Shown here one piece after another: positions 14,400 through 51,905 of a stretch of DNA of 64,000 nt. The first letter of the stretch is position 1, and the number at the start of each line of letters is the position of its first letter. The DNA is from an uncultured Woeseiaceae bacterium (GTDB lineage Bacteria; Pseudomonadota; Gammaproteobacteria; Steroidobacterales; Woeseiaceae). The stretch lies in contig CALZMQ010000022.1 in NCBI GenBank assembly GCA_945788625.1, forward strand, positions 30,007 through 94,006. Reading direction: 5' to 3'. The translations under genes and the position numbers were made by a program. The notes under the pieces are model-generated. The model ran no database searches. It had not been told where the DNA came from and saw nothing but the letters and a program-made list of their open reading frames with translations.

Positions 14400-14423
14400 G
14401 ACAGCGCCTGAGGTGGCGTTATC

Positions 14424-27978: not shown

Positions 27979-29307
27979 CTATTTGAAAAACGTCTCCATC
28001 TCGTCGTTGAAGGCATCGGCGTCCGAGCTTTGCCGCTGTTCCATGTAATCGATGATCTCGATGGTGTCTTCGTCGACCTCCTCGGTTTCGGCGCTGAGTA
28101 TCGTCGGCGTGATGAGCACTACCGTTTCGGTGTTGACCTTGGTTTGCTCGCGGTTCGAAAACAGGCGCCCGAGGACGGGAATGCGGCCTATTACTGGCAC
28201 TCCGCGTTTGCTTTCCTCAATGCGATGCTTGATGAGTCCGCCGACGAATATGGTTTTGCCGTCCGGCACGATCATTCTGGTCGTTACCTCGGTCGTGGTT
28301 TGCGAGGGAATGCCGGTTATCGGATCGATAATACCGGTACTGACTTCCGGATGGATATCCATCATTACCTTACCGTTTGCATCGACCGACGGGGTTACAC
28401 GGAGAATGACACCCGACTCGAGGAACTCGATGCTCTCGGTCGTTACCTGGTTGATGGTCGTGATGACACTGTAGCCGCGGCGATCGCCGATGATCACCGA
28501 TGATTCCTGGTCTTCGACGGCCAGCAGCTTCGGTGACGACAGGGTGCGCACGCGTCCCTGCGATGTGAGCGCATCCAGTACCGCGGAGATGTCGGTGTTC
28601 GCATAGCTGAAGAACAGTCCCGGGCTACCCGCGTTGCCGAGCCCCTGGGTACCGAACGAGCCGCTGCCACCGTCACTGTCGAAGAATTTCGTCCAGTCGA
28701 GCCCGTACGAGTCCTCGTCGGTGAGCGATACTTCGAGAATCTTGGCCTCGATCAAGATCTGCGTAGGCTGCCTGTCGATTTCGAGCACGAGCGCGGCCGT
28801 CCGATGCAGGAATTCCGGGGTGTCTTCAATCAGAAGAATATTCCTGTCGTTGAAAACAGTGATCTCGCCGTATTCCGAGAGGTAGGGTTGAAGCAGCGAT
28901 TGCATTTCGTCGACAGCGACGTATTGCAGCTCGAAACTTCGGACCTTCGTCAATGTGTCCGGAGCATACTTACCTGCCTCGTCGCGGTCGACAATGAAGT
29001 AGTTACCCTCGTAGTGCTCGACCGCAAGTCCGGCCGCGTTGGCAATTGCGCGAATAGCGTCCGGCAGCGTCATGTCGTAAAGGCTGAAGGAGACTTGTTC
29101 GTTGGAGTCCGTGGAAACGAAGATGTTGACTCGTTGCTCGCGCGAAATCATGTCCATCACGTCAACGAGGTCGGCGTCTCTCATGGTCATGCTGATGCGG
29201 TGCTCGACCTCCTGCGCGCAGGCAAGCGACGAAATCAGGAGGGTTACGGCCAGGAGCCCGTGAACGAAAGTCCTTGTCAGGAAGCCTGGAATTGTATGTC
29301 TACTCAT
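27979..29307 (-). CDS. Secretin (GspD/PilQ/MshL family)
   Basis: C-terminal secretin signature GVPVIGRIPVLGRLFSNREQTKVNTETVVLITPTI, with an N-terminal signal and secretin-N-like domain. Confidence 0.9.
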   Translation of the reverse strand: MSRHTIPGFLTRTFVHGLLAVTLLISSLACAQEVEHRISMTMRDADLVDVMDMISREQRVNIFVSTDSNEQVSFSLYDMTLPDAIRAIANAAGLAVEHYEGNYFIVDRDEAGKYAPDTLTKVRSFELQYVAVDEMQSLLQPYLSEYGEITVFNDRNILLIEDTPEFLHRTAALVLEIDRQPTQILIEAKILEVSLTDEDSYGLDWTKFFDSDGGSGSFGTQGLGNAGSPGLFFSYANTDISAVLDALTSQGRVRTLSSPKLLAVEDQESSVIIGDRRGYSVITTINQVTTESIEFLESGVILRVTPSVDANGKVMMDIHPEVSTGIIDPITGIPSQTTTEVTTRMIVPDGKTIFVGGLIKHRIEESKRGVPVIGRIPVLGRLFSNREQTKVNTETVVLITPTILSAETEEVDEDTIEIIDYMEQRQSSDADAFNDEMETFFK

Positions 29308-29668
29308 TGTCTTCTGCCAAGTTCGGTCTCACGTACACGGTTATCGTTCTGCTGTCTCGTTTGAAAACGGCGTATTCTTCATGGACGGCGACCAGGACGT
29401 AACCTTGAATCTCGTCGCCCGGTTTGAGGATTCGTCCCGCGACGTTCGCGAGCTCGCTGACTTTGCCCACCATGGTGGCTTGCAATTCCAGGGCGACGCC
29501 GGTGTCGTCACCCCGTTCGATGGGGCCACGCTCGCTGCGAATGACTTCGGACGGCGGCCTCGAAAACGGATTGTGCGCAAGGGCGGGCGGCTCGTCGGCC
29601 GCGTGCGCAATCGGAAGCAAAGCGGACAATACCGCAAGGCCGATTGCCCGATAAGCCGCGACCGTCAT
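29300..29668 (-). CDS. PilP/MshK/GspC-HR-like small periplasmic protein
   Basis: Signal peptide, then LQATMVGKVSELANVAGRILKPGDEIQGYVLVAVHEEYAVF, which resembles the PilP/GspC HR beta-domain. Sits immediately upstream of the secretin with an 8-nt overlap. Confidence 0.5.
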   Translation of the reverse strand: MTVAAYRAIGLAVLSALLPIAHAADEPPALAHNPFSRPPSEVIRSERGPIERGDDTGVALELQATMVGKVSELANVAGRILKPGDEIQGYVLVAVHEEYAVFKRDSRTITVYVRPNLAEDNE

Positions 29669-30222
29669 TCCTGCACCCGGTACGAAGCAAGGCTGACCTC
29701 GGCAAGCAGTTTCGGATTGTCGTCAATGGCGTCGCGCCGGCTCATTCCGTACTCCTTGACAACGACGAATCCGAGCTCGTTCTTCGCATCCCAAAGCCAG
29801 CGATAAATATTGTCGTACTCGCCGACCAGTTCGATATTGAAAAGAATCTCGCTGAATACCTGTACCTGCTGCCCCAGGGCCGGCTTCACGCTGACGAGCT
29901 CGACGTCGTTTCGCCACGAGATGTTCTGCAGCCGCCCGATGACGTATGACTCGACCTGCTTCAGGGGAAGGTTGGCCATATCCCCGTGCAGCCGGAACTT
30001 GAGATCTTCGATCTTTGCGTGGCGTTCCTGCAGTTGCTGCTCGAGATTGGCGCTGTTTTGCCGGGCGCCCTCGAGAACGGCAACGGCCCTGGACGTCGCC
30101 CGATACTCCTTGACGACGGGGAGCAGTGCAGCGGTCACCGCGATCGATGTGAGTACCAGGCCAAGCCCCAGGAGAAGCATTCGAAACTCGCGCTCGCCGA
30201 GCTTTTTCAGGGACGACAACAT
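29665..30222 (-). CDS. PilO/GspM/MshJ-like bitopic inner-membrane protein
   Basis: N-terminal TM helix, a coiled coil, then a ferredoxin-like C-terminus. Called from position and architecture. Confidence 0.6.
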   Translation of the reverse strand: MLSSLKKLGEREFRMLLLGLGLVLTSIAVTAALLPVVKEYRATSRAVAVLEGARQNSANLEQQLQERHAKIEDLKFRLHGDMANLPLKQVESYVIGRLQNISWRNDVELVSVKPALGQQVQVFSEILFNIELVGEYDNIYRWLWDAKNELGFVVVKEYGMSRRDAIDDNPKLLAEVSLASYRVQE

Positions 30223-30878
30223 CAGGCACCCTCGATGTCGCTGTTGAGAATAATCGTCAGGTCAAAGCTGACGACGCGGCCGTTCGCATAGTCGATCAGG
30301 GAGGTCCTTTGCACGCTGACGTCCTTGATGTCGGGCTGCTCGAACAGCGAGCGCACGAACGTCGACAACGCCTGGTGATCACGCGCCTGACCTTCCAGCG
30401 ACATATGGGTTTCAACCTGCCAGTCAACTGCTTCGTTGCTGCGATCTTCGGCCGGCACGATCACGAAATAGCCGGTCTCGATGCCGCGCGTCTTTCCGTC
30501 GACGACAACACCGGCTCTGCGGAAGCTCCAATCGACGAACCAGAGATCATCGTCGACCAAAGCGCGGTCGATGATCCTGAAAATATCTTCCACGGCAGCA
30601 CCCGCGCGCAGTCCGCGCAGTTGGGACCAGCGTTGCTCGTATTCTGATTGCCGGGCCGACAGTTGCTCCAGCTGACCCTGCTGTTGCTCTGTAATTGCGC
30701 TCTGCGATTTGAGTTCCTGTACGCGTTCGCTTGCCTGCCGTGACAGGTGTGCGAAAAAGCCGGTGGACGAGAGAATGACGACGTTCAGCACAACAAACGC
30801 GATGAGGTACTGGCGCATCATCGAGCGCCGATTGATCCAGTCTCGGTAATCTTGCGGGATCAGGTCGAGTTCAGCCAC
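30222..30878 (-). CDS. PilN-like (fimbrial assembly/GspL C-terminal half-like) protein
   Basis: LDLIPQDYRD matches the PilN INLLP motif, followed by a TM helix and a coiled coil. Confidence 0.6.
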   Translation of the reverse strand: MAELDLIPQDYRDWINRRSMMRQYLIAFVVLNVVILSSTGFFAHLSRQASERVQELKSQSAITEQQQGQLEQLSARQSEYEQRWSQLRGLRAGAAVEDIFRIIDRALVDDDLWFVDWSFRRAGVVVDGKTRGIETGYFVIVPAEDRSNEAVDWQVETHMSLEGQARDHQALSTFVRSLFEQPDIKDVSVQRTSLIDYANGRVVSFDLTIILNSDIEGA

Positions 30879-32040
30879 GGTCCGTTATCCCCCGTAGCGC
30901 AAGTCCCGTTGCCACGGCGATCTCGGGCGCGGAGCCGCTGGCGTCGGCACGCGCTGCTTTGTCGCTGGCAGGGAATAGCGACAAGGGATCGGGAATTTTC
31001 GAAACTTCCGATCCGGTCAGCGAGCTCAAGAGTTGGTCCGAGCCCGGCCAGCGCGCAATACTTCCCAGCAAATACACCCTGGTAACGCCGCGGCCGCGCG
31101 TTTCGGACGCGGCATACAGAAACGCGCGCTTGATTTCCTCGACGAGTTTCAGGAACTGCGGTTTGAGAATCTCCGACAAGGTATTGAACAGTCCGCTTTC
31201 ATCGATCGCGTCGGATACGACATCGCTGTTCCCGGTTGATTGCACCCCAGTGCGGACGACCAGTTGTCGTGCTGTCTCCTCCGGCATGTCGAGCGTCTCG
31301 CAGATATGCTGGATGAGGCTCTGTTCGCCGACCGCGACTTCCTGGTCGAACAACAAGTCGTTCCCCGATATCAGGGTCAGGTAACTGGCGCGTCTGCCCG
31401 AGTTGATGACGAGAGTATTGGCCGAATCCGATTCGCCGGACATCGCTCGGGCCAGGCGGCTAATCGCCAGCGGCCCGATCTCCAGTGCGGAAACATCCAG
31501 GCCCGCCTTGCGCGCCAATTCCAGGTAGTTGACGACGGGCTCGCGCTCACTGACGGCAACGAGGGCCAGCCGTTCGTCGCTCTTCGAACGGCCCCGCACC
31601 GGCATGTAATCGAGGACGTAATTGCCGAGGTCGCCGTCCAGCCGGTCCTTCATGATGCGTACGATCGCTGCGGCTTCGTTCTTCTCCCCGCCGGCGACCT
31701 GGTAGTTGATTGACACGGTGCGGAACATGCCGGAGGGCATTGCGAGCACCGCCTTGTTGCCGTAAAAGCGGTCCGAATCCAGCGCCTTCCTGACCAGGGA
31801 CCGGAATCGCTGCGGCTGTTCCAGCAGCTCGCGGCGCGAGCCGCCGATGTCCACAGAGGCTCTGGCCCGCACGACGGGCGCGTTTTCGCCGGACCGCTCG
31901 AGTTGCACGAGGTGAACTGCTTCCAGCGCAACGTCCAGCCCGATGGGACCGACCTGCACGGCTGAAGAGCGCCGAAAACTCGTCGCAGACAACGCATTGC
32001 TCAGGAAGTTTCTAACGGCCAAGGCTTCGCCCCACTGCAA
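30871..32040 (-). CDS. PilM-like actin-fold assembly protein (GspL cytoplasmic-domain equivalent)
   Basis: GLDVALEAVHLVQLERSG resembles the PilM GIDIGSSSIKLVEL motif, with actin/FtsA-like length. The TTG start is uncertain. Confidence 0.7.
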   Translation of the reverse strand: MQWGEALAVRNFLSNALSATSFRRSSAVQVGPIGLDVALEAVHLVQLERSGENAPVVRARASVDIGGSRRELLEQPQRFRSLVRKALDSDRFYGNKAVLAMPSGMFRTVSINYQVAGGEKNEAAAIVRIMKDRLDGDLGNYVLDYMPVRGRSKSDERLALVAVSEREPVVNYLELARKAGLDVSALEIGPLAISRLARAMSGESDSANTLVINSGRRASYLTLISGNDLLFDQEVAVGEQSLIQHICETLDMPEETARQLVVRTGVQSTGNSDVVSDAIDESGLFNTLSEILKPQFLKLVEEIKRAFLYAASETRGRGVTRVYLLGSIARWPGSDQLLSSLTGSEVSKIPDPLSLFPASDKAARADASGSAPEIAVATGLALRGITDRG

Positions 32041-32127: not shown

Positions 32128-35100
32128 CTAGGGCGCGCAGGTGATTTCGACGTTGTCGAACCAGACCTTGTTGCTGTTGCTCATACCGCTGTTCGGCGTC
32201 CGGAAACGAATGCGGGTACTCGAGCTCAGTGAGCCTGCGTTCAGCGGGTAGCTGGCGCCGGTATAAGATCCATCGGTCGCCGTACCGATAAAGCGATCGA
32301 GCTCCGACCAATTATCCCCGCCGTCGTAGGAGACCTCGACGGCGACGTAGTCGTTGCTGCCACTCAGGTTCTGGCGACGATAGTCAAAGCTCAGCGTCGC
32401 ACTCGTGGCACCGCTCAGGTCGGCCTCGCGCCACACGGTCTGGCCATCGTCGCGAACCTGCAGCTGGTAGTTGCTGATGTCATTAGCAATTTGAATATCG
32501 CCGCCGGAGGCGCTGGTTGCTTCGCCGGTCTCCTGCCAATCGGTCTTCCAGTTCGTCGAGCCGCCGCCGTAGTTCACGGCATCGAAACTATCGGTGAAGG
32601 GACCATTACAGCCGCCACCACCACCACCGCCGCTACCACCGCCAGCGGTGAATAAATCGGAAACCTCCGTTGCGCTCATCGGATAATCGTAGAGCCGAAT
32701 GTCGTCGAGCATCCCCGGCCAGTAGGTGCCGGCGTCGGGGGTTCCCCCTATCGTGAGCGGTTCGGTATTCGGCAGCGGGTGGTATGGCGTTGTGGTGTTG
32801 TATATCGATGTCCCGTCGACATAAATGTTGATGTCACCTGTGGTGTCATCAAGCGTCGCGGCGACGTGATACCACTGGTTGGTCGTTAGATTCGCGTTGG
32901 TGGTTTGAAACAGCTTCATTCCCGAGCCGTCGTTGAACGCAAATACAATTTCGTCGCTCCAGGTGGTGAGCTGATAGTTCGCTTGCTGCTTCTTTCGTAC
33001 CATCGTCTGGTATACGTTATTCAGAGCGGACGTTTTCAGCCAAAGACTGATCGTCATGTCGGTCAGCGAGAGTGCATCGTCGTGCGGCACATTGACGTAA
33101 TCATCGTTGCCCGGAAAACTAAGCGCATCACCGAGCTGACCTGCCACCCACACCGGGCCATTCGCCAGCGTTCCGTCGTGGCCGCCCTCGGAATCGATTG
33201 CCGTTAGTCCCGTGCCATCATCCAGTTTCCAATGCGCGATCGGACCTGTCGTGGTGGTTTCGGCCGCCAGCGTGGCAATTTCGACGGCGCTCAAGGCGAC
33301 ATCGTAGATGCGCAGGTCATCGAACTTGCCGTGGTAATCGCTGACCCATTGAGGATTTCCGAGTCGCAGGTTGCCGGTATTTGTTGGCGGTGTGAGACCT
33401 GTCGTGTCGCTCAGTACCTCTGTTCCGTCGAGATAGAGCCTGACGGCGTCACCAGAGTTATCGAATACACCGGCGATGTGATACCAGGTTCCTGACTGTA
33501 AGCCGAGTCCGGTGGTCTTGAATTCGATCCAGGCGCCGTCGTACCAGCCAAACGCGAGGTCCCCGTCAACCGTGCCGAAAAAGTAGTTGGAGTCGTAACC
33601 GACCTGGCCCTTATTGAAAATCTGATCGTAATAATCAACGGATGATTTGTTGATCCACGCAGTCAATGTGAATGCATCAGTGAGAGATAGCGATTCATCG
33701 TGCGGTACGACAATTACGTCGTCGACGCCATCGATATCCAGGGCACCATCGAGATAACCTGTACTCCAGGCCGGGCCGTTCTGCAGAGTGCCATTGTGTC
33801 CACCTACTGAATCGAGGGCCGTCGTGCCACTTGTCTCGTCCAGCTTCCAATGTGCAATCGGTCCTGTGTCCGTACTGCCTGCCCCCCACTCGATGGCGCG
33901 CTGCATAATCGTGAGACCGTCATCGGTGAGGAGATTGACGTCGAAATTGTACGATCCCCACGGTAATTTCACGCGGCGCGCCGGCGCCGGCGTACTGTCG
34001 TTGCGTAGCTCTCCGGATTCGAGATAAGCAAGACCCGGGTCGGTTCCACTCAGTTCGCCGAGGACATGCAGGTCGACAGCCAGCGTTCCCTGCAGCACCC
34101 ACATGGACTGGATCGCGGTGGAGAGTTGCACATTGCCGATAGCCAACGTCTCTGTAATGTAGTGAGAATTGTCAGTGAGGTTTATCGAGTCGGTATCGAC
34201 GAACGGGAACAGCGCGAAACCGCCAAGCAGCAACGCGCGCCTGGCCTCTTCTGTAATTACACCAACCGCGAGGTTATCCGCTTTATTGCCAAGCTCGTTC
34301 ATCGGCGTAGTGCCGAGCTCCGGAATGTAGACTACGTCGACTGCTCCTGCTGCCGTATCAAAGGCGGCCTGCGTGTCGGCCGTGGCGATCAGCGATATCG
34401 TGTGCCCCCAGCCCTCCATAAGAGCCTTTTTGTCGGCTTGCTCGATGGTCAGGTTGGCAGTATCACCCACGACCAGCAGGACCTTTTTGCCGTTGCTGGC
34501 CTTGCCCGCCCCCATCGCCCAGTCCAGCGAACGCTGCATAATCAATTGACCGCTGTTGTTGACCTCGGTCCAATCGATCTGCGTGTCGCGCCCGAACGGC
34601 AACATGACACGCCGCCCTGCGGCTGTTCCGCCGGTGGCGGACTTCGCGCCCGCGTCCAGCAAGGTAATCGTCAAACCGCCGCCCCAATCGGCCAGAGACC
34701 GTGCGTCGGGCGCGGGTGTTCCACCGATGGTCAGTCCACCCATGTCGGCGTTGTAGATCTCCAGTGCACCTGCAGCGAACGGCGCCGTGATGTAGTGGTC
34801 AGTATCGGTAACGGTAATACTCCGACCAACGGGCCAGCTACTCGAATTGCCCAATTCGAAGCCGAGTTCATCGTTCATCCAGCCATCTTCGTTGACCACG
34901 CCGATGGGCACGTCGCTCACCTTGGTGCCCAGACTGGTCGGATCGACGGTCTCCGATATATACACGACATCGCGGTCAGCAAGCTTGGTCTCATAGGAGT
35001 TCGCGCCGGCGCCATCGTTTATTACCTCCACGCTGTAGCCCCAGGCCTCGAAAAGAGCTTTCTTGTAGGCGTCTTGCGGATCGCTGAGGTTCGACTCCGC

Positions 35101-36603
35101 TACGATCATCAGGATGTTGCCGCTACCGCGTGGTGCGAGGCAGGCGTTACCGCACTCGCAGGCATAGGTGATTGTCAGCTTCGGACGGAGCGTGTAATCG
35201 CTGGTCTCGCGGGAGGCGAACTTTGCCTGCCTCAGACCGTCGGTGCTCCGGATCAGGAGACCATTGTTGGCCGTGCCATTCAGCCAGGCATTAGCCAGTG
35301 AGGTGACGTCCCAGGACACCCAACCGCTGGATGCGTCGATATTCGCTGTTGCAACGGGCGCCGGGTCAAAATCGCCGCCCGGCGAAGTCCAGGCAGCCGA
35401 TCCGTCGTGTGTTGACCAGGTCGCGCCATCGGCCACGCCCCCGCCGGTTCGTGTGCCCTCAACAAAGCGCTGTGTAAGCCGATGGACAGTGGCCGTGCCA
35501 GCGGTGTTAGTGGCCGAATTATTGAGTTGCAGCGTCGCCGTGAGGACTTTAGCTCCATACGGCAGGGTGGCAAGGTTGAACCTGAGCAACGGGTACTGCT
35601 GCCAATTTGACTCGTCATTGATCTGCAGGTAGTCGGCTCCGCCGTAATTGCGCTCATAGAACGAGTCTATCAGCGCATCCGCGCCGGAGTCGGCACCGAG
35701 CTGCAGTGTTACGGTTCCTGGCGCCTGGTAGGCGGCGGCAAGCTTATCCTTCAACTTCCGGGCGACGCCATTATCGAGCTTGCCCGTTGCTTTGATCGTA
35801 ACGGGCGATGCCGGCCCGCTGCCGACGACCACCTCGAGGCGTGGCGGATTCGTGCCATCTTCGCGCGACGTGTACTCGGTGTGCGTTCCGTCGGCTTGCG
35901 GGTTGAACAGGATGCCGTAGTTCGGTTGGCCGTTGATCCAGGCCTGAACCTGGGCTGTCAGGTTTATCCCCACCCACACGTCGCCCGTATCCTGGGCGGA
36001 TATCATGCCGATGGGGCTGCTGCCGTAAGCACCGGCGAATGACTCCCATGTGACGGTTGTTTCGGTCCAATCCGCGGTGATTTCGTGAATTGTTATCGGG
36101 CCTTCCGGATGCATTTTGCCGGCCTTGATGTGGAACCAGGCAATCGCTGAACTGATCTGCGCCTTGGCGGCAATGGAGGAAACGTCGAAGCGCGTCAGTA
36201 CCAGTTCGGTTCCGGCAGCCTCGCGCCTGACGTGATTCCACGTGGTCTTGCCGTTGTTCATCGAAACAGCGTCGCTGCGTATCCAGGCATCCTTATCAGC
36301 AGTAAATGAGAGTGCCGTACCCGGCGCTGCACCAGTAATCGTCGCGTTGTAGCTATCGGCGCCGAGCGAGGTGTCAGGAATCGTTACGTCGCCCATGCAG
36401 GCGTTGTTCTGCGCGCGCCACAGCGCATGCTGCGATCCGGCTTGTGCCACATAGTCCACACGTGCTGCGTCAAGCTCTCCGGACGATGCGTTTGCGCTTA
36501 CCGCGGAGTCGTAGTTCAACAGCAGCGAGATCGACGCAACCAGAAACAACATCACGACTACGGTGATGAGAAGATAGCCGCGTTGCTGAGTGCGTGTGCT
36601 CAC
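32128..36603 (-). CDS. 1491-aa GspK/PilX-like minor pseudopilin fused to DNRLRE-like, LamG/ConA-like and other modules (MshQ-like adhesin candidate)
   Basis: N-terminus QRGYLLITVVVMLFLVASISLL is a pseudopilin-type helix without Glu5, as in GspK. Two DNRLRE-like units (LTRFDVSS..., LLRFNLATLP..., WDVTSLANAWLNGTANNGLLI). Two duplicated alpha/beta modules. Two LamG units (GPIAHWKLDETSGTTALDSVGGHNGTL..., GPIAHWKLDDGTGLTAIDSEGGHDGTL...). A poly-Gly linker and a C-terminal beta module. GTGA overlap with the upstream pilin gene. Confidence 0.8.
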   Translation of the reverse strand: MSTRTQQRGYLLITVVVMLFLVASISLLLNYDSAVSANASSGELDAARVDYVAQAGSQHALWRAQNNACMGDVTIPDTSLGADSYNATITGAAPGTALSFTADKDAWIRSDAVSMNNGKTTWNHVRREAAGTELVLTRFDVSSIAAKAQISSAIAWFHIKAGKMHPEGPITIHEITADWTETTVTWESFAGAYGSSPIGMISAQDTGDVWVGINLTAQVQAWINGQPNYGILFNPQADGTHTEYTSREDGTNPPRLEVVVGSGPASPVTIKATGKLDNGVARKLKDKLAAAYQAPGTVTLQLGADSGADALIDSFYERNYGGADYLQINDESNWQQYPLLRFNLATLPYGAKVLTATLQLNNSATNTAGTATVHRLTQRFVEGTRTGGGVADGATWSTHDGSAAWTSPGGDFDPAPVATANIDASSGWVSWDVTSLANAWLNGTANNGLLIRSTDGLRQAKFASRETSDYTLRPKLTITYACECGNACLAPRGSGNILMIVAESNLSDPQDAYKKALFEAWGYSVEVINDGAGANSYETKLADRDVVYISETVDPTSLGTKVSDVPIGVVNEDGWMNDELGFELGNSSSWPVGRSITVTDTDHYITAPFAAGALEIYNADMGGLTIGGTPAPDARSLADWGGGLTITLLDAGAKSATGGTAAGRRVMLPFGRDTQIDWTEVNNSGQLIMQRSLDWAMGAGKASNGKKVLLVVGDTANLTIEQADKKALMEGWGHTISLIATADTQAAFDTAAGAVDVVYIPELGTTPMNELGNKADNLAVGVITEEARRALLLGGFALFPFVDTDSINLTDNSHYITETLAIGNVQLSTAIQSMWVLQGTLAVDLHVLGELSGTDPGLAYLESGELRNDSTPAPARRVKLPWGSYNFDVNLLTDDGLTIMQRAIEWGAGSTDTGPIAHWKLDETSGTTALDSVGGHNGTLQNGPAWSTGYLDGALDIDGVDDVIVVPHDESLSLTDAFTLTAWINKSSVDYYDQIFNKGQVGYDSNYFFGTVDGDLAFGWYDGAWIEFKTTGLGLQSGTWYHIAGVFDNSGDAVRLYLDGTEVLSDTTGLTPPTNTGNLRLGNPQWVSDYHGKFDDLRIYDVALSAVEIATLAAETTTTGPIAHWKLDDGTGLTAIDSEGGHDGTLANGPVWVAGQLGDALSFPGNDDYVNVPHDDALSLTDMTISLWLKTSALNNVYQTMVRKKQQANYQLTTWSDEIVFAFNDGSGMKLFQTTNANLTTNQWYHVAATLDDTTGDINIYVDGTSIYNTTTPYHPLPNTEPLTIGGTPDAGTYWPGMLDDIRLYDYPMSATEVSDLFTAGGGSGGGGGGGCNGPFTDSFDAVNYGGGSTNWKTDWQETGEATSASGGDIQIANDISNYQLQVRDDGQTVWREADLSGATSATLSFDYRRQNLSGSNDYVAVEVSYDGGDNWSELDRFIGTATDGSYTGASYPLNAGSLSSSTRIRFRTPNSGMSNSNKVWFDNVEITCAP

Positions 36604-37583
36604 AACATACCGCCCACCCGGACCCGGGCGCCGAGGCTGACGACGGCGCCGCCCGGACCCGTGAGTTCGAGTTCGATGGCGACCAGTTGCGGGGAACCGG
36701 CAGCAGAGGGAATTCGTTCGACGCGAAATCGCGTCACGTTTTCCGCGATCACGGATTCTACGAAGTCACGGCCGTCGACAGGGCCGTCTGGTACGCTGAT
36801 GCCGTCCTCGTTCCACGGCACGGGCATACGCTCGATCAACGACGAGCCGTCGAGGTAGTAGACGACCGGGTCGTAGGGGTCGTCAAACGAGCCGCCGTCT
36901 TCATCGTCGTCATCGTTCGTGCCGTCGTCGATCGTAGCGTCGGAATCGTCATCGACACCGCAGCGGCCGGGACAACCGTCTCCGTTGTTGTCGCTGGGCG
37001 GATCCTCATCGATGCTACCGTCGCCGTCGTTGTCGATGCCGTCCAGAGGATCCTCGTTTTGAGCGCCGTCTTCGTCGTCCTCGGCCCAGCCGGATCCATC
37101 GTCCACGGTGCCGTCACCGTCGTCGTCGATCAGCATGATCCCCGGCTGGAAGTCGTGGTGAATGTCGTTCGGGAGGTCCTCGTCGATCAGGCCGTCCCTG
37201 TCATCGTCAGCGTCGGGGAACCCGTCTGCGTCGAGATCGATGGACACGGGTAAGGTAATCGCCAGCACTGCCGTCGCGAGTGTGCTGTTGCCGACAGGGG
37301 CAGAAGGAGGCACGGTCTGTTCACGAAAATTCTCGGGCCAGTTCGTCGCCGGGTTGTCGGCGAGCGGCAGCAGCAGGCGACGCGACTCGCTGCTGACTCT
37401 CACCATTCGGTTGAGCCCAAAGCGTGCGTCTCGAAGCAGTTGATTCCGCTCTGCAACGAGTTCGTCGGTGCCCAGTGCATGCTTGGCGATACTTGCGACG
37501 GCGCCGAGCACAAGTCCGGCGAGCAGCATTGCGACCAGGAGCTCGACGAGCGTGAATCCGGATTGTCGTTTTCCGCGGCGCAT
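36600..37583 (-). CDS. Minor (pseudo)pilin, GspJ/PilW position, with an acidic DxDxDG calcium-binding-type repeat region
   Basis: Prepilin motif QSGFTLVELLVAMLLAG. The central region reads DLDADGFPDADDDRDGLIDED...DDDGDGTVDD...DNDGDGSIDED... Confidence 0.8.
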   Translation of the reverse strand: MRRGKRQSGFTLVELLVAMLLAGLVLGAVASIAKHALGTDELVAERNQLLRDARFGLNRMVRVSSESRRLLLPLADNPATNWPENFREQTVPPSAPVGNSTLATAVLAITLPVSIDLDADGFPDADDDRDGLIDEDLPNDIHHDFQPGIMLIDDDGDGTVDDGSGWAEDDEDGAQNEDPLDGIDNDGDGSIDEDPPSDNNGDGCPGRCGVDDDSDATIDDGTNDDDDEDGGSFDDPYDPVVYYLDGSSLIERMPVPWNEDGISVPDGPVDGRDFVESVIAENVTRFRVERIPSAAGSPQLVAIELELTGPGGAVVSLGARVRVGGML

Positions 37584-37585
37584 GG

Positions 37586-38014
37586 CTAGAAACCACGTGC
37601 GGTCACGGTCTGAATCGAGTGTACGGTCCCTTCGATTTCGACTCGGATCCAGACGAGATCCGCATCGCCGCCGGTAAACGTGTCGTTGTCGGCATCCGCG
37701 TTGTCGCCGTCATAGAGAGACAGATAGACGAGCAAGCGGACAGGCGGTCCGGCTGGATCGGAATAGCTACTGGGTGTTGTCGGCGCGCCCGCAGCGATCG
37801 CCGCATCCGACAGATCCGCAAACGGCTCGGCGAGCAGTTCCTCGAGTCGCGAGGACAATCGATAATGTCCTGACGCGAGACTCGCGTGAATATCGGTGCC
37901 AACGACGCTGGTCTGCAATGCGTGCATGGCCGGCACCAGGGCGATCGCCAGCAATGCTATCGCGATCAGCACTTCGATTAGCGTAAGACCGCTCTCCATT
38001 CGTCGTACCGTCAC
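37586..38014 (-). CDS. Minor (pseudo)pilin, GspI/PilV-like
   Basis: Prepilin motif ESGLTLIEVLIAIALLAIAL. 142 aa. Confidence 0.75.
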   Translation of the reverse strand: MTVRRMESGLTLIEVLIAIALLAIALVPAMHALQTSVVGTDIHASLASGHYRLSSRLEELLAEPFADLSDAAIAAGAPTTPSSYSDPAGPPVRLLVYLSLYDGDNADADNDTFTGGDADLVWIRVEIEGTVHSIQTVTARGF

Positions 38015-38568
38015 TGGATCGTTACCCGGCCGGTTATTGGGGCCACACTAACGAGGCTCCGTTGATTCCCGTAGCTCAGCTCGATGATTCCATCGCCGAG
38101 CAGATAAGTGGTGGGGCCAGAACCGACAATCCACTTGGGCGTGCCGTAAGCGTCGAAGATCAAACTTCTGCGCCGGCCCAGGCCTGTGAAGTTGAACACG
38201 TCCTGACTGTTACTGATGGTTACGCCTTGAGTGGTTGATCCGGTGGCGACATTGAAATCGTAGGGCTGCTTGTCGACGGGGTGGACCAGGGTATAGAGCG
38301 TGCTGATCGGGGCTGTGGTCATGTCGTACTTGTTGACCGTTACTTTCTGTGTGGCCTGGCTGACCGTAAGCCCATGTTCTTCGCCGGTACGGATTGCTTC
38401 ATCGCGGGCGAAGCGAATCGCGCTTGCGACTTTGTTTGCGGCCAGGTGCAGCCGCTTGTCGTGACTTGACGAGAATCCCGGTACTGCAATAGCAGCGACA
38501 ATTCCGAGAATCGTAATGACGACGACAAGTTCCACCAGCGTATAGCCGCGCTCCACTCGTGCCTTCAT
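38011..38568 (-). CDS. Minor (pseudo)pilin, GspH/FimT-like
   Basis: Prepilin motif RGYTLVELVVVITILGIVAAIAVPGF, then LAANKVASAIRFARDEAIR, which is typical of GspH/FimT. Confidence 0.8.
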   Translation of the reverse strand: MKARVERGYTLVELVVVITILGIVAAIAVPGFSSSHDKRLHLAANKVASAIRFARDEAIRTGEEHGLTVSQATQKVTVNKYDMTTAPISTLYTLVHPVDKQPYDFNVATGSTTQGVTISNSQDVFNFTGLGRRRSLIFDAYGTPKWIVGSGPTTYLLGDGIIELSYGNQRSLVSVAPITGRVTIQ

Positions 38569-38588: not shown

Positions 38589-38658
38589 GGGGACATTCCT
38601 GATTCAGCCTGACCGGGCCAAACCAGGAATGTCCCCATGTGCAATCAGGAATGTCCCC
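38589..38658 (-). terminator. Stem-loop/attenuator between the major and minor pilin genes, with a duplicated 5-prime arm
   Basis: ggggacattcctg (38589-38601) is the exact reverse complement of caggaatgtcccc, which occurs twice (38624-38636 and 38646-58). On the minus-strand RNA the hairpin is followed by GUUUUCG and then the Shine-Dalgarno of the next gene. Confidence 0.5.
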
Positions 38659-38667
38659 GGATCGGGT

Positions 38668-39180
38668 TTACTCGTCGCCGATGAACTCGCCGGTGACCGA
38701 GTCGAAGCGCCAGCCGCCCGTCGAGCCGCTCGTCAGCCCGAGTACACCGGTGTTGACGACCGCCAGCGTGTTGACCGTGCCGAGCGGGTTCACCGGTAGA
38801 TCGTCCTTCAGGTACGGGCCGTACTTGAACTCGTTCGGGTCCGTACCGGTGCAGGCAAGGCCCGCCGCATTGGTGTAATTCTTGAGCTGGGCGATAAACG
38901 CCGGTTCGCCGACCGCACCGGCGACCGCGACACCGTTTATGCAGGTTGCGCCAGATGACGCGACAGCGCCCGGATACGCGTTGTGCTGTTGCCGGTACAA
39001 ATCGACAGCAGAGCGGATATTGGCGATATTCGTGTCATAGGCCGACTGATTCGCATCGTCCGTGGCTGCCGAGAATTGGGGCACGATGATTGCTGCCAGG
39101 ATTGCCAGGATAATGACGACAATCAGCAACTCCACCAACGTGAAACCATCCTGGTCTCTGGATCTTACAAGCGAAATCAT
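38668..39180 (-). CDS. Major (pseudo)pilin, GspG-like
   Basis: Leader MISLVRSRDQDG, then FTLVELLIVVIILAILAAIIVPQF. The following DTNIANIRSAVDLYRQQHNAYPG resembles the GspG ...LxLYxLDNGxYP motif. A GGGAG Shine-Dalgarno precedes this ATG; the ORF track starts at 39201. Confidence 0.85.
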   Translation of the reverse strand: MISLVRSRDQDGFTLVELLIVVIILAILAAIIVPQFSAATDDANQSAYDTNIANIRSAVDLYRQQHNAYPGAVASSGATCINGVAVAGAVGEPAFIAQLKNYTNAAGLACTGTDPNEFKYGPYLKDDLPVNPLGTVNTLAVVNTGVLGLTSGSTGGWRFDSVTGEFIGDE

Positions 39181-39293
39181 AGACTTATCTCCCGTATGCA
39201 TATCTTTAGTCCGCTACTGCAAGGGTTGTCGGCGCCTGGGCCGGAATCTTTAGGGGCTGCGTCGCTTTTTGAGCATCTGTACGGCTTCTCAAA

Positions 39294-40421
39294 TCAGGAA
39301 ACCGCGCGCGACAGCTTGAAGATCGGCAGGATGAGCGAGCTCACGAGTACGCCGACGACGACGCCCATCACGAGCAGCATGATTGGTTCGGCCAGTTTCG
39401 ACAGGGAATCCAGCTTCTTGGCCAACTGGACCTCGTAGTACTCGCAGATTCGCCCGGCTACTTTGCCGAGATTGCCGGTCTGCTCGCCCGTGGCGATCAT
39501 GTGTTTGGCCAACTCGGGCAGGAAGGTGGAGTCGGCGAATCCGGCGGCCACGCCGGCGCCCGCCTGCACGGATTCCTCGACTTTCATTATGAGTTTGCGA
39601 AACAGGGAGTTGCGCACAACGTCGCGGCAGGCTTCGAGGCTCTCCATGACCGAAACGCCGTTATTGAGCGACAGGCTGAGCACCTGCAGCGACTGCACGA
39701 GATAGATCTGCGTGAAGATGTCACGCAGCCCCGGCGTGCGCAGCTTCATGCGATCGACCGTCGTCACGCCACCGTCGCTGGCCAGCCACTGACGCAGCCC
39801 GACGACAAAGACACCGAGCCCGCCCAGCAGGACGAACCAGTACTGGCGCAACAGATCGCTCACGGCCATGAGTGCTTTCGTGGACATGGGCAGCTGGTCG
39901 TAGATCGACTCGAACATATCGCCGAATTTCGGAAACACGGCGACCAGCACGAACACGACGACTGCGAGCGAGAACGCGATCAGGAACATCGGGTAGGTGG
40001 CTGCCGACACCAGGGTGTTGCGTAACTGCTCGCGTTTCTGGTCCATGTGCAGCAACTGCTCGAGGACTTCGTGCATGAAGCCGCCGGCCTCGCTGGCCGA
40101 AATCAGGTTGACGTAGGTCGAGGAGAAAATGTGGTCGTGATCGGCCAGGGCGCTGCCGAACGAGCGACCTTCACTGATGTTCTGTGCGACGGTTTCGACC
40201 ACGGAACGCATTTCCGCGTTCTCGGTTTGTTTGACGATCGTAGTCAGTGCGCCGAACAGGCTCTCACCCGTTTCGAGCAACAGCGCAAGTTGTTCCGTGA
40301 AGAACATGCGGTCCGATGCGCTGGCACGCCTGCCGTTTCCCGGCATGCGCAGTTTGAAGCCGGCGTCTTCGTTGCCGCCGGTAGTCTCCTCGAGTTCTTC
40401 AGTGTCAAGTTGAATCGCCAA
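39294..40421 (-). CDS. GspF/PilC/MshG-family inner-membrane platform protein
   Basis: Two T2SSF repeats. A TTG at 40421 just after the ATPase stop is the likely start; the 402-aa track ORF overlaps the ATPase gene by 71 nt. Confidence 0.85.
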   Translation of the reverse strand: MAIQLDTEELEETTGGNEDAGFKLRMPGNGRRASASDRMFFTEQLALLLETGESLFGALTTIVKQTENAEMRSVVETVAQNISEGRSFGSALADHDHIFSSTYVNLISASEAGGFMHEVLEQLLHMDQKREQLRNTLVSAATYPMFLIAFSLAVVVFVLVAVFPKFGDMFESIYDQLPMSTKALMAVSDLLRQYWFVLLGGLGVFVVGLRQWLASDGGVTTVDRMKLRTPGLRDIFTQIYLVQSLQVLSLSLNNGVSVMESLEACRDVVRNSLFRKLIMKVEESVQAGAGVAAGFADSTFLPELAKHMIATGEQTGNLGKVAGRICEYYEVQLAKKLDSLSKLAEPIMLLVMGVVVGVLVSSLILPIFKLSRAVS

Positions 40422-40431: not shown

Positions 40432-42459
40432 CTAGGTGCTGGTGGCGCGCGAGACTTCCTCGATCGTGGTCTTGCGATCGAGCGCCCGCTGCAGGCCGTC
40501 ATGGAAAAGGTTATGGAAGCCGCGGCGGTCGAGGTAATCGCTCAGCTCGTCACGAGTCGGGCTGGAGATAATCAGTTTCTGCAGGTCGACGTCCGTCTTC
40601 AGTACTTCGTGTATGCCGATGCGGCCCTTGTGCCCCGAGTCATAGCATTGCTCGCAGCCTTTACCTTTCGCGAGCTTGACGTCGCCCTGGTCCTGCCAAC
40701 CGTATTGCTGCACGAGCTCGGGCGGCGCGAGAAACTCGTACTTGCAGTTGGAGCATATCGTTCGCACCAGGCGCTGGCCGACGACGCCGAGCAGTGCAGA
40801 CGACAGGAGATAGGGCTCGACGCCCATATCGATGAGGCGCGTAATCGCGCCGACCGCGTCGTTGGTATGCAGGGTCGAGAGAACGAGATGACCGGTCAGC
40901 GCGGCCTGCACCGCAATTTCCGCGGTCTCGCGTTCACGGATCTCGCCGACCATGACGATGTCCGGGTCCTGCCTGAGTACGTGTTTAAGAATCTTCGCGA
41001 ACGACAGCCCTATGCCGTCGCGGACTTCGTTCTGGTTGATGATGTCGAGCTGATACTCTACCGGGTCTTCGATCGTGACGATGTTCTTCTCGATACTCTT
41101 CAAGTAGTTGAGGGCCGCGTACAGGCTCGTCGTCTTGCCGCTTCCGGTCGGTCCGGTTACGAGAATGAGGCCGTGACTCGCATCGAGGAGATTCTTGAAT
41201 ATGCCTAAGTTGTCGCTCGCCATGTTGAGCTTGTTGACGTCGAGTATCGCCTGGTTCTTGTCGAGTATTCTCAACACCACCTTTTCGCCGTACAGGCCGG
41301 GCAGGGAGCTGAATCTGAGGTCGACCGAGCGCCCCTGCGTGTGCACCTGGATGCGGCCGTCCTGTGGCATGCGCCGCTCGGCGATATCGAGGTTTGCCAT
41401 AACTTTCAGGCGGGAGATCAGCGCCGGGTGCAGTTCCACGCGCGGTGCGGTGAATTCGTACAATAGACCGTCGATGCGAAAACGGATACGCGAGTGCGTG
41501 CGAAACGGCTCGAGGTGTATATCCGATGCGCCGTCATGGACCGCGCGCTGAATGATGGAATTCACCAGGTTTACGACAGGGCTGCCGGCAGCGACTTCAT
41601 CGATCGTCGAGTGATCCTCGATCTGCATGCTTTCGACGACGGCAAAGTCCTCGTCGACGTCGCCGACCATGTCGAACTGCATGTCGGCAATGCCGAGCGA
41701 TTCGCTCAGGAGTTTCTGGATGTCCTGTTTGCGCGCCAGCACGGGCCGGACCTCGCACTGCAGACGCTCGGAGACTTCCTCGAAAGTCGGCATGTCCTGC
41801 GGTTTCGCGGTTGCCAGGTACAGGACGCTGCGCACCCTGAAGATCGGCATGACGCAGAGGCGTCGCGCGACGCCGACATCGAGCGTCGCCGCGGTGGTGG
41901 GGTCGAAGAGTCCCGGGCGCAGGCGCACGAACGGTACGCCGAGCTGCTCTCCCAGCGCGCGCAGGACGTCATACTCCTCGACCCATCCCTTGTCGATAAT
42001 GATTCGGCCCATGCGTTTGCCGAGACGATCCTGGAGTTTCAATGCCTCGTCGATTCTCGCCTGGGGCCTCGAGCCGGGACCGAAGCTCACGTCGTCCGGA
42101 TCTTTGCGTTCCTGGCGCCCATCGCTGTCGAGAAAGGAAATGTAGTCCGAAAGGCCGGTGATCGCGGCGATTTCGCCGATAATGGAGTTGTGAGTCGTGA
42201 TCTTGACCCAGCCGCCGATTTTCATCAGGCGATCCTGGAGGTCCGCAAGGCAGGACAGGGCCAGGCTGTCGATCGTCTGCACCGCGGAGAAGTCGATAAT
42301 GATCTTTGAATCGCCGGCGTCGATGGATTCGTCGATGGCCAGCATCAGGTCTTGCAGCGCGTCGTTGCCGACCAGCGAAAACTTCGGCGTCACATGTGTC
42401 GCGACACCGATTCTTACGCGGGCAATGGCCGACGATGCCGTTTTTGCGGGCTCGTTCAT
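40432..42459 (-). CDS. GspE/PilB/MshE-family secretion ATPase with an N-terminal STAS (anti-sigma-antagonist-like) domain
   Basis: Residues ~20-110, KIIIDFSAVQTIDSLALSCLADLQDRLMKIGGWVKITTHNSIIGEIAAITGLSDYISF, fit the STAS pattern. A GspE_N-type domain follows (RMGRIIIDKGWVEEYDVLRALGEQLGVPFV). Walker A GPTGSGKTT and the tetracysteine CSNC...CEQC are present. ATGA overlap with the upstream gene. Confidence 0.9.
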   Translation of the reverse strand: MNEPAKTASSAIARVRIGVATHVTPKFSLVGNDALQDLMLAIDESIDAGDSKIIIDFSAVQTIDSLALSCLADLQDRLMKIGGWVKITTHNSIIGEIAAITGLSDYISFLDSDGRQERKDPDDVSFGPGSRPQARIDEALKLQDRLGKRMGRIIIDKGWVEEYDVLRALGEQLGVPFVRLRPGLFDPTTAATLDVGVARRLCVMPIFRVRSVLYLATAKPQDMPTFEEVSERLQCEVRPVLARKQDIQKLLSESLGIADMQFDMVGDVDEDFAVVESMQIEDHSTIDEVAAGSPVVNLVNSIIQRAVHDGASDIHLEPFRTHSRIRFRIDGLLYEFTAPRVELHPALISRLKVMANLDIAERRMPQDGRIQVHTQGRSVDLRFSSLPGLYGEKVVLRILDKNQAILDVNKLNMASDNLGIFKNLLDASHGLILVTGPTGSGKTTSLYAALNYLKSIEKNIVTIEDPVEYQLDIINQNEVRDGIGLSFAKILKHVLRQDPDIVMVGEIRERETAEIAVQAALTGHLVLSTLHTNDAVGAITRLIDMGVEPYLLSSALLGVVGQRLVRTICSNCKYEFLAPPELVQQYGWQDQGDVKLAKGKGCEQCYDSGHKGRIGIHEVLKTDVDLQKLIISSPTRDELSDYLDRRGFHNLFHDGLQRALDRKTTIEEVSRATST

Positions 42460-45051: not shown

Positions 45052-46896
45052 CTAGATAACCTGTTTAACCGCGGTCGACTCGGCCCAGAGATTGATGATG
45101 AATTCGGCACCTTCGTCCCGGTCCCGATTGAGCGACAGCGTGCCGTGATGTAATTCGACGATTTGCCTCGCAAGCGCTAACCCCAGGCCATGACCCCCGA
45201 TCGCCTGAACTCGCTCATCAGCAGAGCGGTAAAACTTGTCGAAGATGCGGGCTTCCTCGGCGTCGCTGATGCCGATGCCGGTGTCGGCAACGCGAACCTG
45301 TACGGCGTCGCCGGTGTCTTCGAGCGTCACGGTCACCTTGCCGTCTTCCTTGTTGTACTTGACGGCATTGCTCATCAGGTTGGTGATGGCGACGCGAATG
45401 AGGTCCTTGTCCACCATGACCGGGTTCATTTCCTTCGGCACGTCGAGTTCGAGATCGCAGTTCGTGCCGGCGGCCATGTAGCAGGCCTCGTCATAGGCCG
45501 CGCGGACGACGTCCTGCAGTTTCACGAGGCTCCGCTCGGGCGAGATGCTGCCGCTCTCGATCTGGGTCATGTTCAGCAACCCGGTAATCAGGGTGCCCAA
45601 TCGGTCGACCTCTGCAGCGATGACGTTGGCCGCCTCGATCTGGTGTTCCCTCGACTTGCCTGCATCGCTCAAGAGCGACTCGCTGTAAAGGCCGAGTACG
45701 TTGAGCGGCGACTTCAGCTCGTGGGACAGGTGGGAGACAAACTCGGTTCTCGCTTTCCTGGCGAGTGCCTCCTGGGTTTCGTCGCGAAAAACAATCAGCG
45801 TGCCGATGGCGGATGCCGGGTTCTTCGGCGAGAACAGGGGATAGGTCTTCGTGGCGATCGACTTCGAGTACGCGGTTCGCGTATCGAAGCGAATGGTCTC
45901 GCTGAAGTTGCGCGAATTGCGCTTTGCCTGGAACTTCATGATGAGATCGAGCACGTCGGGGTGCTCGCACCAGCTTTGCGGCGCCTGGGACAACAGCGTT
46001 TCCTGCGTCACGTCGAACAGCGCGGCGAGCTTCTGGTTAGCAAACGTAACGGTCCCCGATTCGTCGAGAATCATTACGGCCTCGGGCAGGGTTTCGAGCA
46101 CCGTTTCAACGCGGTTTTTGCGGTAGGTCAGCAGCTTGCTGGAGGTGAGCAGGCGGTCCTTGTCCTGCTCCAGCAACTGGATCTTCGAGGAGGCCATCTC
46201 GACGAAGTGGTTGAAACGCCGCATGAACTCGCCGAGTTCACCGGTCGCCGAGACTTGCACCGACTGGAAGCCGTCGCCATCGATCAGCTTGCTGATCTCG
46301 TCGTTGGCGGCCCTGATTGGCCGCACTTCCATTCTCAGCAGGAAGTAGAAGAACGGGGCAAGCAGGAAAACGGGCAGTGCGACCATGGCGAGGAATGGCA
46401 TCTGCGCGAGGCTGAGTCCGGCTGACGGGTGGAGGTAGCCAAGCCGAACGAAACCCCTCAAGTCGCCGTCTTGCAGGAGCGGCGCATGGAATTCGATGAA
46501 GCGCTGGTCGCCCGAGCGTAGTTCCATATTGCCGAGCCAGGCGCTGGGTTCTGCCGGGATTTTCGCCACTGGCACAATCGAACCGCCGGCCGCGGCTTCC
46601 GCCACGGTGCGGCCGTCGCCGTCGCTGATCGTTACATAAGCGAGCCGTGTATTCGCGGCACCGTGGTGCAGCGCCTGTACGACGCCCTGCTGCTGGCCGC
46701 CCGGAACGAGCTGCTCGTAGGGTATGGCCGATATCGCGCGGGCCAGGCTCACACCCTGCGTGCGAATCTCCGCCAGCTGGTCGTCCTTCTGGTTTTGAAA
46801 CAGCAAAAACACTATCGTTGCTATAGCAAGCAATGATGCAACCACGACGACGAGGCCAATTCGATCGGCTTTTGGCAACGGACTAATCCAATTCAA
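45052..46896 (-). CDS. Membrane sensor histidine kinase (periplasmic loop, HAMP, PAS, HisKA, HATPase)
   Basis: H-box SHELKSPLN, N box NLMSNAVKYN, G boxes DTGIGI and GHGLGL. Two TM segments. TTG start. Confidence 0.9.
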   Translation of the reverse strand: MNWISPLPKADRIGLVVVVASLLAIATIVFLLFQNQKDDQLAEIRTQGVSLARAISAIPYEQLVPGGQQQGVVQALHHGAANTRLAYVTISDGDGRTVAEAAAGGSIVPVAKIPAEPSAWLGNMELRSGDQRFIEFHAPLLQDGDLRGFVRLGYLHPSAGLSLAQMPFLAMVALPVFLLAPFFYFLLRMEVRPIRAANDEISKLIDGDGFQSVQVSATGELGEFMRRFNHFVEMASSKIQLLEQDKDRLLTSSKLLTYRKNRVETVLETLPEAVMILDESGTVTFANQKLAALFDVTQETLLSQAPQSWCEHPDVLDLIMKFQAKRNSRNFSETIRFDTRTAYSKSIATKTYPLFSPKNPASAIGTLIVFRDETQEALARKARTEFVSHLSHELKSPLNVLGLYSESLLSDAGKSREHQIEAANVIAAEVDRLGTLITGLLNMTQIESGSISPERSLVKLQDVVRAAYDEACYMAAGTNCDLELDVPKEMNPVMVDKDLIRVAITNLMSNAVKYNKEDGKVTVTLEDTGDAVQVRVADTGIGISDAEEARIFDKFYRSADERVQAIGGHGLGLALARQIVELHHGTLSLNRDRDEGAEFIINLWAESTAVKQVI

Positions 46897-47669: not shown

Positions 47670-47679
47670 AACCTCGGCG

Positions 47680-51707: not shown

Positions 51708-51905
51708 CGTCAGAAAGTCCCGTCTGTTTCACATAATGTTCGGTCGCCCCGATCGTTACGGGCGGTATTCCATAACGAATTGTCGGCAAGGGGGCCGAAT
51801 TCTGAATACCCGACCGGACCGGGTTGCGGTCGATACCACTGTGCAACGGCCTGAAAACCGTGGAAAATCCGGCCCTCTTAGCACGAGTTCTCCGAGGGCG
51901 GCATC

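Follow-up and report, generated by a model that had tools for sequence, protein, structure and literature searches.

A STAS domain fused to, or encoded beside, the c-di-GMP-receptor ATPase of an unclassified type IV filament system

The genome of an uncultured Woeseiaceae bacterium (assembly GCA_945788625.1) encodes, in the 64,000-nucleotide stretch of contig CALZMQ010000022.1 that was analysed here (hereafter the window), a GspE/PilB-family motor ATPase of a type IV filament system that carries an extra N-terminal STAS domain. Comparison with related loci confirmed that this fusion is real. The fusion belongs to a cassette that consists of a histidine kinase, a CheY-like response regulator, one or more enzymes of cyclic di-GMP (c-di-GMP) metabolism, the STAS domain and an ATPase with an MshEN c-di-GMP receptor domain; STAS and ATPase are fused in Proteobacteria and Myxococcota, and are encoded by separate genes in Planctomycetota. 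On balance, the STAS domain would serve a pilus motor gated by c-di-GMP as a regulatory or docking subunit, and would not be a classical partner-switch element. The ATPase of the window differs from all of its aligned relatives in a 33-nt in-frame deletion within the c-di-GMP site.

The STAS-ATPase fusion and its family

The ATPase orf begins with an ATG codon (42459) that shares the four bases ATGA with the TGA stop codon of the upstream GGDEF-EAL gene, and an overlap of this kind is likewise called in L081, the closest relative. Forty-three homologues with 61-87% sequence identity align with the window protein from Met1 onward; therefore, the true start is not downstream of the STAS domain, as a preliminary description made from the sequence alone had considered, and the domain is not a start-codon error. 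An origin of the STAS domain in a wrong start, a chimeric assembly or a frameshift fusion to the upstream gene is vanishingly improbable and is refuted by the conservation data, since the identical architecture and the ATGA-coupled start recur in independent assemblies and the GC content at third codon positions of the orf (GC3, 0.79) is similar to that of the neighbouring genes. Such errors do occur in this family: one database protein (P0144) reads GGDEF-EAL-STAS-MshEN in a single orf, with a junction that resembles frameshift read-through, and for that reason it was dropped as weak Rosetta-stone evidence for an interaction between EAL and STAS. Longer fusions suggested by long stop-to-stop frames upstream of STAS (e.g. 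in L002 and L064) were rejected as open frames in GC-rich DNA, in a frame different from that of the upstream gene.

The SpoIIAA/STAS pattern that the preliminary description recognised in the first ~110 amino acid residues (aa) is borne out by profiles, by a structural model and by fold comparison. Pfam PF01740 matches aa 40-109 with 30.9 bits (E=2.4e-7; gathering score 22.6); of the Pfam families in question, STAS (PF01740), MshEN (PF05157) and T2SSE were found above threshold, and STAS_2 (17.7 bits) below its cut-off. The anti-sigma antagonist model TIGR00377 (ant_ant_sig) scores 30.4 bits against a cut-off of 53.45, and the homologues score 29-36 bits. For a profile built from 21 N-termini of the family, the first match is SpoIIAA (1AUZ, E=3.7e-7), with TM1081 and further anti-sigma antagonists next. 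The AlphaFold2 (AF2) model of aa 1-125 has a mean predicted local distance difference test score (pLDDT) of 82.6, with 87-94 across aa 11-110, and its strands and helices follow the canonical STAS order b1-b2-a1-b3-a2-b4-a3-b5. All 29 of the Foldseek matches in the PDB at E<=0.001 have the STAS fold; they are mainly anti-sigma antagonists, and also include RsbS, MlaB (found among the sequence matches as well), SLC26 transporters and YtvA. The top matches are 3F43 (TM1081), 6M36 (RsbV) and 1THN (SpoIIAA), with TM scores of 0.65-0.86 and root mean square deviations of 1.4-2.9 Å.

The preliminary description had located the position at which antagonists are phosphorylated in the segment 'IDS', correctly so: Ser65 of this segment, with which helix a2 begins, is aligned with the first of the two Ser residues in SpoIIAA 'MDSSGLG', and we take the latter residue to be phospho-Ser58. 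The residue is Ser in 63 of 67 fused STAS domains (~94%) and Gly in the other four, and among the split forms it is Ser in 10 of 11 and Gly in one. The fused family reads 'DSLAL(S/E)' here instead of 'DSSGLG', and the split forms hold a more canonical 'DSxGLE'. A Ser or Thr at the N-terminus of a2, as in the antagonists of partner switches, is present as a residue, and its presence does not in itself show phosphorylation. Strongly conserved positions across 25-87% identity are D56, S65, Q75, L78, GGW/K 82-86 and T101. Antagonists use the N-terminus of a2 for protein contacts, and the conservation of Ser65 may reflect a phosphorylation site or a structural or interface residue equally well. The STAS domain is followed by a linker of ~20 residues that appears flexible in the full-length AF2 model and is poorly conserved in the alignment.

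The ATPase core has the features expected of a T2SSE ATPase, namely Walker A and Walker B, the Asp and His boxes and the tetracysteine motif: GPTGSGKT, IEDPVE, DPDIVMVGEIR, TGHLVLSTLHTN and four cysteines are invariant among the homologues, in keeping with the Walker A motif and the CxxC...CxxC zinc site of the preliminary description. Its scores on the equivalog models are below the cut-offs for GspE (TIGR02533, 558.8 versus 630.25) and for PilB (TIGR02538, 546 versus 675.65), and it is about equally close to the solved structures of GspE (4PHT, 423 bits) and PilB (5TSG, 422 bits). GspF, the pilin, PilM and the secretin of the cluster are all below their equivalog cut-offs as well. Assignment of the machine to the type II secretion systems (T2SS), the type IVa pili (T4aP) or the mannose-sensitive haemagglutinin (MSHA) pili was rejected because every component falls below its equivalog cut-off; its set of machine genes is complete, and the most suitable label is that of an unclassified type IV filament system that shows some MSHA-like traits. 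Unlike an MSHA locus, the cluster has no MshM/N, possesses PilMNO and not MshIJK, and encodes a secretin that scores below the MshL cut-off (144.9 versus 250). The GGDEF-EAL gene at the head of the cluster and the giant LamG protein downstream presumably recall mshH and mshQ.

Loci were surveyed by alignment to STAS plus MshEN, a procedure that depends on two MshEN_C peptide patterns, so the count is a lower bound: at least 80 loci were found, all from metagenome-assembled genomes (MAGs) of Woeseiaceae, unclassified Gammaproteobacteria, Sedimenticolaceae, Thiobacillus, Ectothiorhodospiraceae, Methylococcaceae, Pseudomonadales, Myxococcota and Planctomycetota. The ATPase was located in them with the full protein as query. 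A hidden Markov model (HMM) of the family's STAS domain matches within the ATPase orf at 65 species-level loci (68-180 bits), followed by the MshEN motifs and Walker A, and PF01740 is flagged in 111 of the best 120 database matches (61-100% identity). The frequency of STAS-T2SSE fusions, which the preliminary description raised as a question, is that of a conserved family; the carriers of the fused form are Woeseiaceae, other Gammaproteobacteria and Myxococcota, all of them MAGs. An exhaustive search with STAS alone returned mainly contig-truncated fragments, with STAS followed by MshEN in many clusters and no clean count. Distant STAS relatives were found in other architectures, namely FHA-STAS, STAS-REC-HisKA-HATPase and a 5690-aa protein with seven STAS-like stretches (P0186, P0226, P0240, P0247).

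The public names of close homologues (P0022, P0037, P0053) are inconsistent, including 'Flp pilus assembly complex ATPase component TadA', 'PilB' and a generic T2SS/T4P/T4SS ATPase, and could mislead surveys of the gene content of Woeseiaceae. One contig with the same bacterial cluster (L069) is labelled 'Halobacteria archaeon' and was probably mis-binned.

The signalling cassette and the c-di-GMP receptor domain

A histidine kinase, a response regulator and a GGDEF-EAL protein are encoded upstream of the ATPase on the same strand in all 44 loci for which 5 kb or more of upstream sequence is available. Downstream, GspF is encoded in 40 of 40, and 36-39 of 40 have the pilins and the LamG protein. 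The GGDEF domain of the window protein is degenerate (RIGGGEF), and the EAL motifs are intact (ELLIR, DDFGAG, KIDGSF, AEFV, QGF). Among the relatives, the EAL catalytic motifs are found at all loci, and GGDEF is degenerate in ~60% of those aligned. Because the EAL motifs are always kept while GGDEF is often degenerate, the conserved activity of these proteins is predicted to be c-di-GMP hydrolysis or binding of the EAL type.

In Planctomycetota, all eleven loci (L070-L080) have a stand-alone STAS orf of ~111 aa that ends just before an ATPase opening with the MshEN motif. The STAS protein of L074 scores 45 bits on Pfam STAS; on the family HMM, nine of the eleven split STAS proteins score 43-62 bits and two score 26-30, compared with 33 bits for the best STAS protein in the PDB. 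The split operons that were scanned encode a histidine kinase (5 of 5), a membrane GGDEF protein (4 of 5) and, upstream of GGDEF, an HD-GYP protein (three), and HD-GYP was confirmed in one further Planctomycetota locus. To judge from these gene contents, the same regulatory logic appears to have been built from non-homologous c-di-GMP enzymes, HD-GYP plus GGDEF in one case and GGDEF-EAL in the other. The existence of both a fused and a split form argues that STAS and the ATPase work together physically, and makes their interaction a directly testable hypothesis.

The region after STAS was assigned in the preliminary description to a normal GspE_N domain, which has to be revised: it is an MshEN c-di-GMP receptor domain, with a full tandem motif in all 43 aligned homologues. 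These read 'RLGDILVARxLIxQxxIDEALKLQ - DRLGK - RMGQIIIDKGWVxENDVLRALxEQ', a 24+5+24 element that matches exactly the one defined for MshE (PMC5013675). The window protein retains 'IDEALKLQ' (the end of motif I), the spacer 'DRLGK' and an intact motif II, 'RMGRIIIDKGWVEEYDVLRALGEQ'; eleven residues, 'LGDILVARxLI', are gone, which constitute the first half of motif I, including helix 1 and the LG of 'RLG'. The deletion is private to this contig, being absent from 43 of 43 aligned homologues and visible as a clean gap when the DNA is aligned with five related loci. The earlier observation of a single MshEN-like motif is true of this sequence, then, but it does not describe the family, whose other members examined keep the tandem pair. 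Because of the gap, the c-di-GMP motif model NF053729 gives the window protein 34.8 bits over model positions 15-53 only, below the cut-off of 38 that three homologues exceed with 61-65 bits. In the full-length AF2 model, the remnant of MshEN_N has three helices, not four.

The motif residues of MshE are needed for c-di-GMP binding and function (PMC5013675; PMC11656802), and changes to two or three conserved Leu residues practically abolish binding (PMC5013675). Since the window protein lacks the Leu and Gly of 'RLG' together with helix 1, its affinity for c-di-GMP is most likely weak or lost altogether; either the STAS arm would then be the chief source of regulation, or the motor would be inactive. 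The other genes of the cluster are intact and match those of L081 in length, so the deletion is not part of a general decay. It offers a ready allele for comparison.

Possible roles of the STAS domain

If the STAS domain is a regulatory or docking subunit, c-di-GMP bound to MshEN would gate filament assembly, as it does for MshE and certain PilB proteins; the c-di-GMP signal would be set locally by the two-component system and the EAL (or HD-GYP plus GGDEF) enzymes of the operon itself; and STAS would either act on the ATPase itself or dock the operon's signalling proteins onto it, with no dedicated Ser-kinase/phosphatase partner switch behind it. Several points weigh against this. The partner that STAS would contact is deduced from gene fusion and gene order, and the full-length AF2 model, in which the ATPase core is poor (pLDDT 35-65), does not indicate how the domains are arranged. 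In at least one Myxococcota locus (L059) and one of Phycisphaerae (L075), a kinase lies directly upstream with no c-di-GMP enzyme between, and in the latter it directly precedes STAS; therefore, the cassette is not strictly invariant. The deletion in the c-di-GMP site, seen on a single contig, could be a natural allele or an assembly or consensus error. The genomic context was examined over ~20 kb per related locus and over 64 kb for the window. Finally, the strong conservation of Ser65 and the fact that the nearest solved relatives are phosphorylatable would suit phospho-control by a distantly encoded kinase.

The last point leads to the principal rival, classical partner switching, in which an RsbW/SpoIIAB-type kinase and a PP2C phosphatase, encoded at other sites in the genome, would add and remove a phosphate at Ser65, and the phosphorylation state would set the activity of the motor. 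The Ser at the phosphorylation site of nearly all fused and split STAS domains speaks for it, as do the more canonical motif of the split forms and the best sequence and fold matches, SpoIIAA and RsbV, which are phosphorylatable (another top match, TM1081, is a putative antagonist only). However, the preliminary description's implication of a partner-switching context finds no support in the neighbourhood: the main predicted orfs of the window and all related operons scanned yielded neither an RsbW/SpoIIAB-type kinase with HATPase_c_2 only nor a SpoIIE/PP2C phosphatase, whereas partner-switch genes normally adjoin their STAS gene and the conserved neighbours here are a two-component system and c-di-GMP enzymes. 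Matches of HATPase_c_2 to the histidine kinases were rejected as RsbW-like, as they overlap far stronger HATPase_c matches. Partner switching is also at odds with the Gly residues of four fused and one split STAS domain and with 'DSLAL(S/E)' in place of 'DSSGLG', and a Ser or Thr at this position is conserved in non-phosphorylated STAS proteins such as MlaB, which is not known to be phospho-regulated. Taken together, partner switching seems unlikely.

Two further explanations are each improbable. The STAS domain might be a sensor through which a bound small molecule (GTP or ATP, an anion or a lipid) adds a metabolic signal to the control of the motor. Nucleotide binding is known for some STAS domains, and the fold matches include those of SLC26/SulP transporters and YtvA, but the sequence shows no evident nucleotide-binding motif, its closest relatives belong to the antagonist type and not to the transporter type, and the conserved positions include S65, at the end of a2 with which antagonists contact other proteins. 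Alternatively, it might be a passive appendage, serving solubility, oligomerisation or localisation without a role in signalling, as the flexible and poorly conserved tether would allow; yet it is kept as a separate gene in the same position in another phylum, it has positions, presumably on the surface, that are strongly conserved among divergent homologues, and it always occurs within a signalling cassette.

Known systems offer partial precedents for a regulatory or docking role. By way of analogy, STAS is a module on an ATPase motor in MlaB-MlaF as well, where MlaB regulates MlaF, an ATPase of another superfamily that serves another process, lipid transport. SpoIIAA, RsbV, HsbA and HmpV share the fold and the Ser at the N-terminus of a2; in contrast to them, the STAS domain described here is joined to or encoded beside a secretion-type ATPase, with no cognate kinase, phosphatase or sigma factor in the operon. 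HsbA and HmpV already provide a connection between STAS proteins and both c-di-GMP enzymes and motility by pili: the cyclase HsbD, a modulator of type IV pilus assembly, is a binding partner of HsbA (PMC5085249), and a switch that governs pilus-dependent motility has HmpV as its output, with an undefined effector (PMC6495340). In FimX-PilZ-PilB and PdeK-PdeR, a GGDEF-EAL protein and a two-component system with EAL output control an extension ATPase post-translationally (PMC11656802); those systems employ PilZ/FimX adaptors and no STAS, whereas here the ATPase itself bears a c-di-GMP receptor and STAS. With the MshE-type ATPases (Vibrio cholerae MshE, Clostridium perfringens PilB2, Myxococcus xanthus PilB and Thermus thermophilus PilF), all relatives examined share the tandem 24-residue MshEN motifs with their 5-residue spacer, T2SSE and the tetracysteine; they differ in the additional STAS ahead of MshEN, and only the window copy lacks half of motif I.

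The preliminary description took the regulatory input implied by a STAS domain on such a motor to be probably undescribed, and the literature searched yielded no paper that links STAS with PilB, GspE, MshE, T2SSE, MshEN, or pilus assembly plus c-di-GMP; STAS is not mentioned in a 2024 review of PilB regulation (PMC11656802) or in the MshEN paper and its supplement (PMC5013675). Pfam already flags the domains and the proteins are named in databases; therefore, the sequences are public, and it is the architecture that has gone undiscussed. A bolder proposal is possible though doubtful: STAS may be a hitherto unrecognised dedicated regulatory subunit of type IV filament ATPases, fused or split, that physically couples an operon-encoded two-component system and c-di-GMP enzymes to the motor without a Ser-kinase/phosphatase pair, so that signalling would be local to the base of the pilus, the window allele being under the STAS arm alone with its c-di-GMP arm disabled. 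Post-translational on/off control of the extension ATPases of type IV filaments is an active question, with c-di-GMP (through MshEN), PilZ/FimX and the Pil-Chp regulators PilG/PilH as known inputs. A STAS domain on or beside the motor would add another class of input, in a cassette conserved across three phyla, and would be another example of STAS with no visible kinase or phosphatase, acting on an ATPase and not in a sigma-factor pathway. The cassette is carried by uncultured bacteria that are abundant in sediments, Woeseiaceae and relatives, and attachment to surfaces is central to their ecology.

The gene cluster and its surroundings

The cluster is encoded on one strand in the order histidine kinase, CheY-like regulator, GGDEF-EAL protein, STAS-ATPase, GspF, major pilin, minor pilins, LamG/CBM96 protein, PilMNO, a 122-aa orf, secretin and HYR protein (Table 1). 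The strong hairpin behind the first pilin gene would fit high expression of this pilin as the major one, with some transcripts reading through into the minor pilin genes. For the 1491-aa protein, a role as a giant tip pilin or as an adhesin for carbohydrates may be considered; its N-terminus 'QRGYLLITVVVML' presumably resembles that of GspK.

Table 1. Coordinates of the features of the STAS-ATPase and its gene cluster in the window, and of one split pair
Feature	Position	Strand	Details or basis
STAS-ATPase, whole orf, 675 aa	40432..42459	-	STAS, linker, truncated MshEN_N, MshEN_C/N1, N2+CTD ATPase
STAS domain, aa 11-110	42130..42429	-	Pfam, PDB profile match, AF2, Foldseek
STAS strands and helices	b1 aa 12-17, b2 20-25, a1 32-47, b3 52-56, a2 65-80, b4 84-88, a3 92-101, b5 108-110
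Ser65 codon (AGC)	42265..42267	-	profile alignment, family alignment
Linker from STAS to MshEN, aa 111-131	42067..42129	-	variable columns; pLDDT <50 for aa 118-131
Junction of 33-nt in-frame deletion	42061..42069	-	protein alignment; DNA alignment
Remnant of 53-residue c-di-GMP element, aa 134-172	41944..42060	-	NF053729, AF2
MshEN (PF05157)/T2SSE_N1-type subdomain, aa 173-255	41695..41943	-	46.8 bits; gathering score 23.1
T2SSE ATPase core, aa 293-671	40447..41583	-	444 bits (PF00437)
Walker A, G436-T443	41131-41154	-	invariant in family
Tetracysteine, C569/C572/C602/C605	40645-40755	-	invariant in family
Sensor histidine kinase	45052..46896	-	two hydrophobic N-terminal segments, weak sCache_3, PAS-HisKA-HATPase_c; profiles, translation
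Receiver-only (CheY-like) response regulator, 129 aa	44660..45049	-
GAF?-GGDEF-EAL protein, 735 aa	42456..44663	-	translationally coupled upstream of ATPase
GspF/PilC-type platform protein	39294..40421	-	likely start TTG at 40421, 11 nt past the ATPase stop, as in L081
Probable major pilin	38668..39201	-	N_methyl, GspG-like N-terminus
Terminator-like hairpin, 20-bp stem	38589-38636	-	right after first pilin gene
Three minor (pseudo)pilins	36600..38568	-	GspH-like 38011-38568; 37586-38014; 36600-37583
1491-aa protein, hydrophobic N-terminus	32128..36603	-	two CBM96/DNRLRE and two LamG modules, partial TafC match
PilM to secretin	27979..32040	-	PilM 30871-32040; PilN 30222-30878; PilO 29665-30222; 122-aa orf 29300-29668; secretin 27979-29307
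1562-aa HYR-domain protein	23080-27768		cluster end
Split pair in L074 (Planctomycetota)	STAS 5531-5866; ATPase 5972-7741 (of L074)

Next to the histidine kinase gene is an orf of 243 aa (46938-47669, +) that is conserved and matches no family; it recurs beside the cluster in several related loci. It is followed by genes for a PgaC/IcaA-like GT2 synthase (47680-49239) and for an outer-membrane protein with a YaiO barrel plus TPR (50137-51846). The region 46938-51846 looks like an exopolysaccharide module adjoining the pilus genes; among the related loci, GT2 and YaiO were detected in L006 alone.

Elsewhere in the window, the forward strand at 12652-18198 encodes a Ras/Roc-like small GTPase (16124-16648) whose gene is flanked by those of a 567-aa protein without a family match and of a hybrid histidine kinase-receiver (16648-18198); genes for an Hpt protein and an OmpR-type regulator are found just upstream. 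A DUF222-HNH endonuclease gene (3246-4643, -) partly overlaps a stretch of lower GC content at 4-6 kb (0.55, compared with ~0.60), and the last 4 kb of the window (60-64 kb) are also lower in GC content (0.54), with orfs low in GC3.

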